The position numbers were made by a program, and so were the translations under genes. Source: Eledone cirrhosa (lineage: Eukaryota). From it: a stretch of DNA of 64,000 bases. Shown here one piece after another: positions 4,578-45,129 of this stretch (position 1 is its first letter; each line of letters starts with the position of its first letter). Below the pieces are notes generated by a model that had not been told where the DNA came from, did not search any database, and saw nothing but the letters and a program-made list of their open reading frames with translations. The DNA is taken from the NCBI GenBank assembly GCA_964016885.1, contig OZ024740.1, positions 252,960,001-253,024,000 of the forward strand. The letters run 5' to 3'.

Positions 4578-6629
4578 GTTGTTGTTGTTTTTGTACATTT
4601 GCTTGATGAAGGTCGGTGGTTTCTTACACATGGCCGCACTAGCTACCCCACTACCGTGTACAGGCCTAACATGGTTAGTGTTATTACTGTTTACGCAGTT
4701 ATCGTTATATTTGTATGTTGTGTTCATAATTTTGCTTTAATAATATACTGGTTCGATGCCCTTCCTATCACCAGCAGCACTTTATAGCATGGACTGTGTG
4801 CTTTTATTCATGCCACCAGCACTAGACAGGTTGTCTTAATGACTCAGGGACCCCCTCCACCCCATACTTTGGCATAGTTTTTAATGGCTGGATGCTACTA
4901 CCATTACCTCCATTTTACAGCATGGACCAGGTGCTTTTATTCGTACCACCAAGCACTAGGGAAGTTGTCTTATTGGACTTAGGGGGCTTCTCCACTCCAC
5001 ACCAATTTATTCGGAATTGTTGCTCTCCTAGATGGGTTGCCTACATTACAGCTTATGGCTCCTCTGTCCTCCCCAGGACTGCTCTGAGCTGTCCTGGGCA
5101 GCTATTCAACTATATTAAGATGCTGTTAGTGAGTTTACATTTAACATATGGAGGGAGGGGGACAGCTGAGGAGGAGAAAGTGATGATGAGGTTTGGGGTG
5201 ATTGGATTTATGGTGCTATATGCACTAGGAAGTGGCTGGTATATGGTGTCAGGCATTCATACCAGAAGGTGATAGAGTTAGGGTGTGAAATGGCGACTAT
5301 ATACCTTTACAAACATTTCCAAAACCCAACGTACGTATATAAACATCTACATACCTATATATACATTTAGGTATATATATAGACACACACACAACACTCG
5401 TGTACATCTGACATACATATATATATGAACATTTCAAAACCCTATGGAATTAAGTTTTGAACATTTATCTATATGATGTCTCAAACACGACTGAGTGATT
5501 ATTTGAAACCGTTTTTTCAGGTCGCTGCGTTTCAATACACACATACAGATACATACAAATATACATGTGGTAACTGGCCATTTCCATTACTATAAATACA
5601 TAAATACACATATTTATACACACTCACACATGTACATCTGACATATATATATATATATTTTGGCACTCAGGTTTTGGTGTTTTACACTCCACTTTTGTCT
5701 CATTTGCTCTTAAAACGCACCACCCGATGATAGTGTAAGAATTGTAATTCTTTGCACTTCTCGGTTCTGACACACAGTTTTCTATTTTCCAAATCTTTCA
5801 AATTTTGATATTGTTGTAACACACGCGGATTTTATTTTTTTATTTGTTTGGCACCCCCCACCACGTGAAATGGTGGCAGGATAGATGCCAACCCCCACAC
5901 ACACATTCTTTTGAACATAGCAGCAGCAGCAAACCAAAGCTGACCTGCCAGCTGACCCCTTAACACCACTGCCAACACAATGGGGGAGGTCAGCTGTACC
6001 TAAACAAAAACAACTACAACAGATTGTCTTGCCTTAAAAACTTTCTATAGACTTTTGACTGAGGAATGTTCTCACAACTGACCAATGGGATGAGAGAGTG
6101 TCCTATGACGCCGAAATTCGTTTGTTCGAATTCATATGATTCCAGTTCCTCAGAGAAATAACAACGCAACCAGGAGCTGGAGCCACTTTTTTAACATAAA
6201 AACAGGTAGAATTCCCAAAACTAATCAGATCAGAGCAAACATCACGGACGCTCTATCTCAAAATTATTTTTGAAAAGCATTTAGAAATGCGCAACCGGTA
6301 AAACTTAAAACCAAAACTGAATACTAACCAATACAATTACTAATTCTCATTTATTCCTAATTAAACTATTTTTCACTGTGAACAATGTCAGTATTTTCTA
6401 TTCCATTTACCAATATATAATAATATAATATCTTGTGTGTTACACCTCTATTCTTTTAACTATATATATATATATATATATATATATATATATTGTTATA
6501 CTTTGGGAGGGTCATGTTGCCAATAAGAAACACACGCACCAGTTGCTTTCACTTCAATTTATTATATATTTATAAATTTATAAATTTCTGGTTGGTTGGT
6601 TGGTTCCACAACCAGATAGTTGTTTATAT

Positions 6630-6674
6630 AGTCATAGTTCTTTCGTCACACACTCTGTGACCTCTTCAGTGACT
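6630..6674 (-). ncRNA. Minimal type-I hammerhead ribozyme motif (family A)
   Basis: Exact reverse complement of 6791-6835. Confidence 0.65.
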
Positions 6675-6790
6675 GGGGATTCCTTTCTTTGTTTCTGTGC
6701 CTCTCCTTTGTTCTGTCCTACGCCAAATTAGAAACAAAATGGCGTAGGACAGAACAAAGGAGAGGCACAGAAACAAAGAAAGGAATCCCC

Positions 6791-6835
6791 AGTCACTGAA
6801 GAGGTCACAGAGTGTGTGACGAAAGAACTATGACT
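6791..6835 (+). ncRNA. Minimal type-I hammerhead ribozyme motif (family A)
   Basis: agtca-CTGAAGA-g-gtcaca(gagtg)tgtgac-GAAA-gaac-TA-tgact: stem I 5 bp, stem II 6 bp, vestigial stem III. Confidence 0.65.
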
Positions 6836-7325
6836 ATATATAAACAACTATCTGGTTGTGGAACCAACCAACCAACCAGAAATTTATAAATTTGTAAATT
6901 TATAAATATATAATAAATTGAAGTGAAAGCAACTGGTGCGTGTGTTTCTTATTGGCAACATGACCCTCCCAAAGTATAACAATATCGGTTTCAACACACG
7001 ATTTCAGATAAAGAATCTTGCTAAACAAATTCAGAAACGAAATATATATATATATATATATATATATATATATATATATATATATATATATATATATATA
7101 TATATATATGCATATATATATATATATGCCTATTTAGTTGTTATAGAGTAAGGTGTATTATTGGTTGTGTCATACGGTCCAATAAACATCTGTTAGCAAT
7201 ATTAAGTTTTTCCACGCTTTTGTATATCTCCAATTCCATTTATGGGAACAGCTAGATGATGTAAAACGGAGTATTTGTATCAAAATAAAGATCCGAAGGC
7301 ATGGTATAAATTTCCAATTATTTTA

Positions 7326-42441: not shown

Positions 42442-42480
42442 GTGTGTGTGTGTGTTTGTATATATATATATATATATATA

Positions 42481-43982
42481 TTTCGTTTCTGAATTTGTTT
42501 AGCAAGATTCTTTATCTGAAATCGTGTGTTGAAACCGATATTGTTATACTTTGGGAGGGTCATGTTGCCAATAAGAAACACACGCACCAGTTGATTTCGC
42601 TTCAATTTATTATATATTTATAAATTTATAAATTTACAAATCTACAAACTTATAAATTTCTGGTTGGTTGGTTGGTTCCACAACCAGATAGTTGTTTTTT
42701 ATATATAGTCATAGTCCTTTCGTCACACACTCTGTGACCTCTTCAGTGACTGGGGATTCCTTTCTTTGTTTCTGTGCCTTTCCTTTCTTCTGTCCTACGC
42801 CATTTTGTTTCTGTGTGTGTGTTGTGTGCTCAGTTTGCGCATGCGCCACATCCGGGTGTCTGTGTGTGTTTGTGTTCATTTATCTATTTGTTTATTTATT
42901 TATTTATTTACATGTTGTTGGTTGGTTGTTTGTTCTATGTGTGTGTGTGTTTTCATTTTGTCCTTAATTGTAAGTTGTGATGTTGCTGTTCCACTCATAT
43001 TTTCTATTTAATTTTGGTTGTAATTCTTTTATGCTTACTGCCTCTGTAATTTGCCTAAACATTGCATCTTTTCTGTGTGTGGATTCTATTTTTATTTCTA
43101 TGTTCTCTAATTTACCCTTGTGTTCTATCTTAGCATGTTGGTAGAGCACAGATAGAACACAAGGGTAAATTAGAGAACATAGAAATAAAAATAGAATCCA
43201 CACACAGAAATGATACAATGTTTAGGCAAATTACAGAGGCAGTAAGCATAAAAGAATTTTGGTTGTAATTCATTTATGCTTACTGCCTCTGTAATTTGCC
43301 TAATCATTGCATCTTTTCTGTGTGTGGATTCCATTTTTATTTCTATGTTCTCTAATTTACCCTTGTGTTCTATCTTAGCATGTTGGTAGAGCACAGATAG
43401 AACACAAGGGTAAATTAGAGAACATAGAAATAAAAATAGAATCCACACACAGAAAAGATGCAATGTTTAGGCAAATTACAGAGGCAGTAAGCATAAAAGA
43501 ATTACAACCAAAATTAAATAGAAAATATGAGTGGAACAGTAACATCACAACTTACAATTAAGGACAAAATGAAAACACACACACACATAGAACAAACAAC
43601 CAACCAACAACATGTAAATAAATAAATAAATAAATAAACAAATAGATAAATGAACACAAACACACACAGACACCCGGATGTGGTGCATGCGCAAACTGAG
43701 CACACAACACACACACACAGAAACAAAATGGCGTAGGACAAGAAAGGAAAGGCACAGAAACAAAGAAAGGAATCCCCAGTCACTGAAGAGGTCACAGAGT
43801 GTGTGACGAAAGGACTATGACTATATATAAAAAACAACTATCTGGTTGTGGAACCAACCAACCAACCAGAAGTTTATAAGTTTGCAGATTTGTAAATTTA
43901 TAAATATATAATAAATTGAAGTGAAAGCAACTGGTGCGTGTGTTTCTTATTGGCAACATGACCCTCCCAAAGTATAACAATA
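42481..43982. mobile_element. Foldback cassette, family A (long form), with GIY-YIG C-terminus in both arms
   Basis: Tail 42481-42538, then a palindrome to 43982. Hammerheads at 42707-42751 (-) and 43778-43822 (+). Peptide HAKIEHKG..DAMFRQITEAVSIKELQPKLNRKYEW. 245-bp duplication of the tip. Confidence 0.9.
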
Positions 43983-44042
43983 TATATATATATATATATA
44001 TATATATATATATATATATATATATATATATATATATATATA

Positions 44043-45129
44043 GTAATAATAATAAAATTGAAGACTAAAATCCAAAGAGGGCTCGATAAGGAAAATATAT
44101 ATCAAATATATAAGAACCGTAGAGCAAATATTTATTAAAATAACAGATTAAAGTTTAAGCAAAGAATCGCTGCTTTCACCCTTAATGGGATCTTCTGAAA
44201 CTAACAAAGTCAATCTGTAAACGCAGAACTGGATATTTCAAAAAACGTTGCAACCGGAGGAAGACAGGAAGACGATATTTTGGTTCGTGGTAACGTTCGC
44301 TGGCAAAGAACGGATAAAAACGTATAATACGTTATTAATAGGAGCGGTGAAAAACAATTACGCGCAAAGACAGAACCACGTTTATGGTATAAAAGAGGTC
44401 GTAGACTAATGTTCTCTTAGGTGGTGTATAGAGACGTTCTCTGGCAATGAACGAAAAAACGAAGATAATAAGTCATATGTGGAGCATGGAGAACAAAGCA
44501 CGCAAAGACAAAACCACGTAAATGGTATAGCAGAAGTCATAGACTAAAATTCTAACTAGGAGACCAAATGAATCTCCGCTACAGAGTTAAGAACAAAGTA
44601 AATAAATACAATACAGAAGTAATAGAAACAAATAAATACATACACACAAACAGATACGTACATACACAAGCATACGCAAAACCTTACCATAGGTATACAA
44701 AACCACGCACATATAAATATGTGTGTGTATGCTTGTGTACAAATAAATAAATAATTATATAAACGTATATAAGTAAATAAATACGTATATAACAAGCGCA
44801 CACACATACCTACAAATAAATAGACGAATGTTCGGAGACGTAAGTCAACTAAAACAAGAAGTACACATATACACACACCCACCATACGTACGAACCTGCA
44901 TACTCACGCAGACGCAAAACTCCCACGTATTATTCGTTTTTTCCCGTTCTTTGCCAGCGAACGTTTCCACGAACCAAAATATCGTCTTCCTGTCTTCCTC
45001 CGGTTGCAACGTTTTTTGAAATATCCAGTTCTGCGTTTACAGATTGACTTTGTTAGTTTCAGAAGATCCCGTTAAGGGTGAAAGCAGCGATTCTTTGCTT
45101 AAACTTTAATCTGTTATTTTAATAAATAT
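44043..45129. mobile_element. Foldback cassette, family B
   Basis: Arms 44128-44331 and 44926-45129. Tail 44043-44127. (TA)n flanks. Motif CAGAAGA-tccc(gttaa)gggt-GAAA. Confidence 0.75.

Follow-up and report, generated by a model that had tools for sequence, protein, structure and literature searches.

The stretch of Eledone cirrhosa DNA analysed here (GenBank GCA_964016885.1, contig OZ024740.1, positions 252,960,001–253,024,000, forward strand; the 64-kb 'window', to which all counts refer) carries at least 11 pieces of Penelope-like element (PLE) type, abutting 10 of its 17 (TA)n runs of ≥30 nt. Five of these pieces (A1, A2, B, C and D) had been listed in a first-pass annotation made from the sequence alone, and local alignment of each cassette against its own reverse complement confirmed the positions and layout given there: all five are head-to-head palindromes with an unpaired tail (40–94 nt) on one side, and all are in (TA)n (Table 1). 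A3, B2, C2, C3, C4 and E are additional to that list. The cassettes are very probably 5′-truncated insertions of several protein-coding PLE families, the inverted half probably being built anew at each insertion.

All ten ends of the five listed cassettes lie ≤2 nt from a run of (AT)≥5, the class used to score ends, compared with 1.0% of non-run positions lying within 5 nt of such a run. Across all cassettes in the window, insertion into (TA)n is seen at 19 of 19 listed ends. The tail occupies a single end in each of the eight two-armed cassettes (40–99 nt), and in all eight the tail-less arm meets (TA)n at an ATAT/TATA that is also present in the tail-bearing arm, just before the tail, so that the outer ends are fixed for each family; those of A1, A2 and A3 fall at the identical base. 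The claim that the tail always lies 3′ of a sense motif holds, but follows automatically from the head-to-head layout. Three (TA)n runs are each flanked by two different cassettes (C2 and E, 14545–14593; C3 and C4, 17666–17725; A2 and B, 43980–44042), suggesting repeated targeting of a tract left by an earlier insertion.

Table 1 Cassettes, cassette fragments and associated features in the window.
Feature	Position	Strand	Arms and tail by alignment	Details
A1	6494..7041		arms 6490-6725/6740-6985; tail right 6986-7041 (56 nt)	inverted tail-less arm 6494-6725; filler 6726-6729 (4 nt); longer sense arm 6730-6985; tail 6986-7041
A1 hammerhead cores	6796; 6669	+; -		by descriptor
A3, third A copy	8377..8649	+		tail-less sense arm 8410-8649 entering (TA)n; inverted stub 8377-8409 (~30 nt)
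B2	10477..10680	+		inverted B tail fused at ATAT straight to long sense arm
C2	11985..14544	+		short inverted arm 11985-~12007; tail ~14446-14544; (TA)n on both sides
C2 endonuclease frame, 5′-truncated GIY-YIG	12073-12582	+		followed by ~1 kb AT-rich 3′ region
Helitron-like non-autonomous element	13607..14383	+		starts TC after A, ends with hairpin and CTAG before T; within TATATA stem III of C2 hammerhead
E	14594..15254			tail left 14594-~14649; arms ~14650-14853/15012-15254; canonical hammerhead 14898(-) in unpaired centre; (TA)n run common with C2
C3	17400..17665			long tail-less arm; canonical hammerhead 17492(-); very short right arm; C-type tail to 17665
C4	17726..17862	-		single tail-less C-type arm; core 17821(-); (TA)n run common with C3
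C	19615..19941		arms 19610-19727/19730-19847; tail right 19848-19941 (94 nt)	arms 19615-19727/19730-19847; core 19741(+), damaged copy 19716(-); tail 19848-19941
D	25752..26214		arms 25792-26003/26008-26219; tail left 25752-25791 (40 nt)	tail 25752-25791; arms 25792-26003/26008-26214; cores 26062(+), 25949(-)
A2	42482..43979		span 42538-43983; tail left 42482-42537 (56 nt)	tail 42482-42537; arm 42538-43130; loop 43131-43149 (19 nt); tail-less arm 43395-43979
A2 hammerhead cores	42746; 43783	-; +
A2 open frame, 61 codons	42967..43149	-		5′ tip of A2 long arm, loop included
B	44043..45125		arms 44128-44332/44925-45129; tail left 44043-44127 (85 nt); unpaired centre 592 nt	tail 44043-44127; arms 44128-44332/44925-45125; U4A-core type I hammerhead 44197(-), 45060(+); 44333-~44553 of centre prolongs left arm; (TA)n run common with A2
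B arm fragment and B2-type tail junction	55122..55385	+		inside second Helitron-like copy 54778-55683

Palindromes adjoining microsatellites are hard to assemble. A fold-back artefact of assembly or amplification beside the (TA)n runs is nevertheless improbable, because the arms of the cassettes diverge (0–7 substitutions and 0–4 indels), the flanks are not mirrored, the mirror ending at element boundaries, and three A copies end at exactly the same base. Further, C2 has been split by a later Helitron-like insertion, and the layout itself is already published. Miniature inverted-repeat transposable elements (MITEs), or DNA transposons of the foldback type that target TA, carrying hammerhead-like sequence by accident, would likewise have long inverted arms and TA flanks. 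However, they would not explain an extra tail always at one end in place of symmetric fixed termini, arm lengths and tips that vary among the A copies, complete hammerheads far above chance or the endonuclease frame in C2; this origin is largely refuted and we give it almost no credence.

Hammerhead motifs and their folding

Both strands of the window were searched with a type I hammerhead descriptor (stems I, II and III plus NUH), using 100 dinucleotide shuffles as the control. Nine canonical matches were found: seven in the listed cassettes (two each in A1, A2 and D, and the plus-strand copy in C) and one each in C3 and E. The shuffles gave 0 in 100, and with another version of the descriptor a mean of 0.01 and a maximum of 1. 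The minus-strand copy in C has the core with a damaged stem I, stem I is also damaged in A3, and the C-type hammerhead of C2 (core CTGATAA at 13567) is interrupted by the Helitron-like insert. B passes the descriptor in both arms, with stems of 5/3/5 bp, a CUU site and the core CAGAAGA (U4A; shuffle mean 0.01); the fold of B is complete. U4A is present in all four motif copies of the B family (45055–45104, 44153–44202, 13934–14057 and 55122–55243), and the change therefore appears fixed in this family; the term U4A was absent from the literature matches listed (subscription papers lay outside the search).

The motifs resemble the minimal hammerheads described from metazoan PLEs (Cervera and De la Pena 2014, PMC4209133) in the short stem I, in the palindromic stem III of C, D, E and C3, which is suited to dimers, and, for the A family, in an additional base preceding stem II and a G-C closing pair. 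They differ in the predicted fold of B, with its 5-bp stem III and U4A core. No hammerhead family was named among the 150 of 202 Rfam matches listed, which contained only miRNA-type hairpin matches below gathering score, and metagenome and GTDB contigs gave 0 matches to a 22-nt hammerhead pattern of the A family. Matches to a U3-A8 hammerhead at 8870 and 9128 were rejected, as they derive from a minisatellite of ~25-nt units (8820–9675) that adjoins a Helitron-like 3′ end.

Every hammerhead pair sits on opposite strands, and opposite-strand pairs 100–700 bp apart, from truncated PLEs, have been described (PMC4209133). On either strand, the antisense arm would be transcribed first, followed by the sole sense hammerhead. 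When RNAs of whole cassettes were folded (A1, B, C and D, seven strands), forcing stems I and II cost 65–90 kcal/mol on all seven strands and the pairing probability of stem I was <1e-43. Isolated A1 arms form stem II at 0.99 in folding; the sense-arm-alone control for C was discarded, as it contains part of the inverted arm. Ribozyme motifs are present in both polarities, as had been claimed, but would be buried in a read-through hairpin. On these folding models the hammerhead would be cargo from the 3′ end of the parent element, inactive within the palindrome, and the hairpin RNA is a plausible source of double-stranded or small RNA if the loci are transcribed.

The first-pass annotation had also suggested that the rod-like cassettes could themselves be mobilisable. 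On such a view they would be non-autonomous palindromes that, once transcribed, are processed by hammerheads of either polarity and then inserted again as complete units by the PLE proteins. Most cassettes are indeed non-coding, non-autonomous PLE derivatives and retrozymes exist, and one B-type junction is found twice (10.5 kb and 55.3 kb) over 67 aligned columns. However, both copies of this junction sit in Helitron-like elements and are therefore cargo. The antisense arm, made first on either strand, buries the sole sense hammerhead, and with one cleavage site per strand no unit can be released. Non-LTR (long terminal repeat) retrozymes (PMC7229834; bioRxiv 10.64898/2026.07.22.740005) are similarly non-coding and PLE-derived with a type I hammerhead, but are head-to-tail tandems releasing circles, unlike the single head-to-head pairs seen here. 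Tips unique to each copy had been named in advance as the mark of one-off truncation products, and within the window the same fold-back junction was not found at several independent loci, all three A tips being different. We consider such mobile units improbable, and find equally little reason to expect that head-to-head stumps are re-copied whole as 'PLE-MITEs', spreading (TA)n-anchored hairpin RNA, with a natural fixed U4A variant in B. A literature search by title or abstract start (subscription papers outside its reach) yielded no palindromic non-autonomous PLEs. Were whole palindromes re-mobilised, they would form a previously unrecognised class of non-autonomous element, of which there is no sign here.

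Coding remnants and clade assignment

The open frame of C2 has 3065 relatives at E≤1e-3 and is like the GIY-YIG endonuclease of Hydra-clade PLEs. A 722-aa relative (38% identity, E 5e-23) has, by eye, reverse transcriptase (RT) motifs upstream and the Hydra-clade marks RWK, DKT, CxCX5C, CxxC and CxH. Hydra marks without CCHH were seen by eye in the relative P0078 and in an alignment of relatives, judged against the list in PMC8557442. The C2 frame itself retains CxH, but CxxC and the second C of the linker are gone. The Pfam match for one C2 relative reached E 0.055 only, and in viral contigs no relative of the C2 peptide was confirmed. The C-type hammerhead and tail of C2 aligned with those of C, and by blastn C4 matches C at 75% and C2 at 80%, with the end of C2 matching C at 74%. 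Another decayed Hydra-type endonuclease end lies at 36450–37251 on the minus strand (tblastn E 7e-9); after it come a 3′ region duplicated in tandem and, near 36520–36575, a degenerate motif resembling a hammerhead.

C has a coding sister, and A2 includes a 61-codon frame: although most cassettes are non-coding, as the first-pass annotation had it, the notion of a non-coding class of their own is wrong. C likely belongs to the Hydra clade, to judge from sequence, and B, D and E likely do so by hammerhead type. The C-terminal endonuclease-containing (EN+) PLEs of this clade (Craig et al. 2021, PMC8557442) share with the cassettes the (TA)n targets, found in 26 of 27 Hydra families according to the supplement, and the 5′-truncated inverted copy at the 5′ end. 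They also share hammerheads on both strands with a short palindromic stem III, and the CxCX5C/CxxC/CxH endonuclease of the C2 relatives. Most Hydra hammerheads in that supplement have a U...UGAA frame around stem II, as in B, D (where stem II is U.U-flanked) and E, and Penelope-13_HM has a 5′-truncated inverted copy with hammerheads on both strands. The cassettes differ from these elements in being mostly 3′-end stumps, in their longer tails, in the U4A core of B and in the two cysteine motifs lost from the C2 frame.

For the A family the frame of A2 appears protein-like in the ESM Atlas (first matches 0.95), where Nematoda are commonest among its matches and the closest Pfam-bearing cluster is GIY-YIG (15% of members; 0.89). 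The frame ends, by eye, in HxxxxH ... E ... LN, like the Nematis endonuclease rows in the available supplement of PMC8557442, in which text look-ups of the A2 peptide motifs gave no occurrence. An NCBIfam match of this peptide (E 0.04; 13 bits, where the cut-off is 423) was put down to chance. The A family is probably Nematis-like, and the frame may well be the C-terminus of a GIY-YIG endonuclease of Nematis type; unlike EN+ PLEs of the Nematis clade (PMC8557442), it comprises only 61 residues, has no direct sequence match and shows neither linker nor RT.

The A, B, C and D cassettes gave no blastn match to one another at E≤1e-3, so that the families are unrelated at DNA level, as the first-pass annotation had stated, yet they appear from these assignments to be kin at clade level. 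Its parallel with PLE insertions (minimal hammerheads, an inverted pseudo-LTR (pLTR) copy, a one-sided tail and a (TA)n target) proved apt and the architecture is already published: inverted 5′-truncated copies, a tail at one end, pLTR hammerheads and (TA)n bias are all stated in PMC8557442. Novelty relative to published PLEs is modest, comprising the longer tails (40–99 nt), the U4A core of B and the high density of pieces. Several unannotated PLE families, Hydra-like and Nematis-like, are added to one animal genome.

Sequence of the A arm (42490–43130) also occurs, at a share of ≥0.2, in 16 of 24 listed sequencing runs, with 13 coded organism labels from 12 studies; matches were counted only above this threshold and lower rows set aside, including two RNA runs with 0.11 of A-arm words. 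This is a lead only, for which close kin or horizontal transfer could both account.

Ends, tips and the building of the inverted arm

We lean towards an inverted half arising from two reverse-transcription starts, one from each target strand, joined head to head, a mechanism suggested by the cassette layout and by experiments with an Anolis PLE in vitro. The GIY-YIG endonuclease of the parent element would cut both strands of a (TA)n tract, and RT would initiate twice, at the end of the tail and at the ATAT directly upstream of it. Both cDNAs would terminate early, in the 3′ untranslated region or the endonuclease end, and their ends would then be united head to head, in many cases with a short filler between them. 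In vitro, the protein of the Anolis element Poseidon PAc (Frangieh et al. 2024, PMC11167929) cuts AT-rich DNA on both strands and extends both, two adjacent RNA start sites bound the tail, and the hammerhead is dispensable. PAc resembles the present case in its AT-rich target and in the two RT starts bounding the tail, but belongs to another clade, and its RT start lacks homology to the cut DNA; here, by contrast, ATAT/TATA is common to the tail-less junction and the target.

With two starts, either arm could carry the tail and fillers could occur at the tip. Five cassettes (A1, A2, B, E and C2) have the tail on their longer arm and two (B2 and C3) on their shorter one; C and D are undecidable in this respect. 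In B2, which is cut off by Helitron-like DNA, the tail-bearing arm has a length of about zero. The tail lies upstream of the arm there, but the resulting idea that the B tail is no tail was abandoned, as the B2 linker is homologous to B's own upstream sequence. Among the A copies, the A1 tip combines a filler of 4 nt with an overhang of 10 nt, while A3 has a 3-nt filler, with the overhang on the opposite arm relative to A1 and a tip unlike those of A1 and A2. A2 turns ~340 nt further upstream, within its coding frame, and its centre is directly duplicated over 249 nt (43010–43258 and 43255–43503, 98%).

The A1 and A3 tips (6730–6745 and 8395–8422) lie within ~25 nt upstream of the motif AAAATGGCG / AAGATGGCG, which we take to be a YY1-like core promoter motif. 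This perhaps marks the 5′ end of an RNA begun in the pLTR.

The first-pass annotation had favoured fold-back of a self-priming cDNA. In full, this route would have one cDNA (or an antisense RNA) prime itself where it was truncated; copying would run back as far as the ATAT site, and the product would be joined to the opposite target end. Fold-back shares its PLE parents with the two-start mechanism and differs solely in the step that builds the arm. We regard it as the less probable of the two routes. Self-priming has already been proposed for Penelope of Adineta vaga (Arkhipova et al. 2013, PMC3846280, with an antisense RNA as template), which has a comparable head-to-head inverted pLTR, a tail on one copy and palindromes at the inverted junction, although target-site duplications (TSDs) are readable and open reading frames mostly long there, compared with (TA)n and no readable TSD here. 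Fold-back suits the tips of C and D, the A1 arms and the five of seven informative cassettes with the tail on the longer arm. However, a tail on the short side, as in B2 and C3, is impossible from a single cDNA unless deletions followed, the A1 and A3 tips have filler bases without microhomology, and the second arm of all three A copies halts at one and the same base despite earlier TA-rich patches in the arm. Moreover, the arms of A2 are as divergent from each other (6/255) as from A1 (5 of 234–246).

Several points weigh against our interpretation, some on parentage and others on the arm-building step. No RT was found in the 64-kb window, Pfam and PDB sequence searches named none in the long C2 relatives, and there is no coding remnant in the B, D and E copies. 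The A2 peptide had no sequence relative in repeated searches, metagenome contigs included, and 837 of 993 shuffles scored as high against a C2-type endonuclease profile; the endonuclease link of A2 is weaker for lack of a sequence relative, drawing on the Atlas lead and on motifs seen by eye. The perfect GATATC tip of C, 12 nt upstream of the core, and the re-iterated tip of D, where a 15-nt unit is repeated, fit fold-back as well or better, as do the A1 arms (0 substitutions in 236 aligned bases and 2 indels, against 5 substitutions from A2) and the 5:2 lean of the tail. The layouts of B2 and C3, with the tail on the short arm, could be later deletions, and the comparison of tips covers three A copies. 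Tails of 40–99 nt exceed the 30–40 bp given in PMC8557442, and TSDs are unreadable where both flanks are (TA)n.

The stumps preserve traces of an insertion step that the field regards as unsettled. Which arm bears the tail, and what the tip contains, discriminate fold-back from two-primer joining, and both can be counted genome-wide.

Other features of the window

A Helitron-like non-autonomous family is represented at 13607–14383, 54778–55683, 9674–9776, 10000–10969 and 51089–51217. Its copies carry B fragments, and one splits the C2 hammerhead. This last copy (13607–14383), which we presume to be Helitron-like from its ends by the Helitron terminal rule, holds a B arm fragment (13934–14057) and a B tail fragment (14305–14355).

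Two further inverted structures, both without a hammerhead, were identified. One, at 33470–34893, has 299-bp inverted termini (98%) around an 826-bp centre, lies outside (TA)n and is MITE-like; the other is a palindrome with 96-bp arms (20124–20359) that adjoins C, with rearranged flank pieces (19937–19992).

Two diverged LTR-retrotransposon pol copies (~73%) lie in opposite orientation at 27542–31409 (minus strand) and 38800–41643 (plus strand), with RT, RNase H and integrase identified by Pfam in a Gypsy-like domain order. Fragments at 2689–3327, 25300–25732, 45278–45793 and 48200–48667 are, from their translations by eye, presumably RTE-like long interspersed nuclear elements. A 238-aa frame at 63208–63924 (plus strand) had no Pfam match at E≤0.1, and by eye we take it to be like an IS1595/Merlin-type transposase. 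Repeats of ~186 bp are clustered in both orientations at 58952–61333, with others at 4389, 33280 and 53630.

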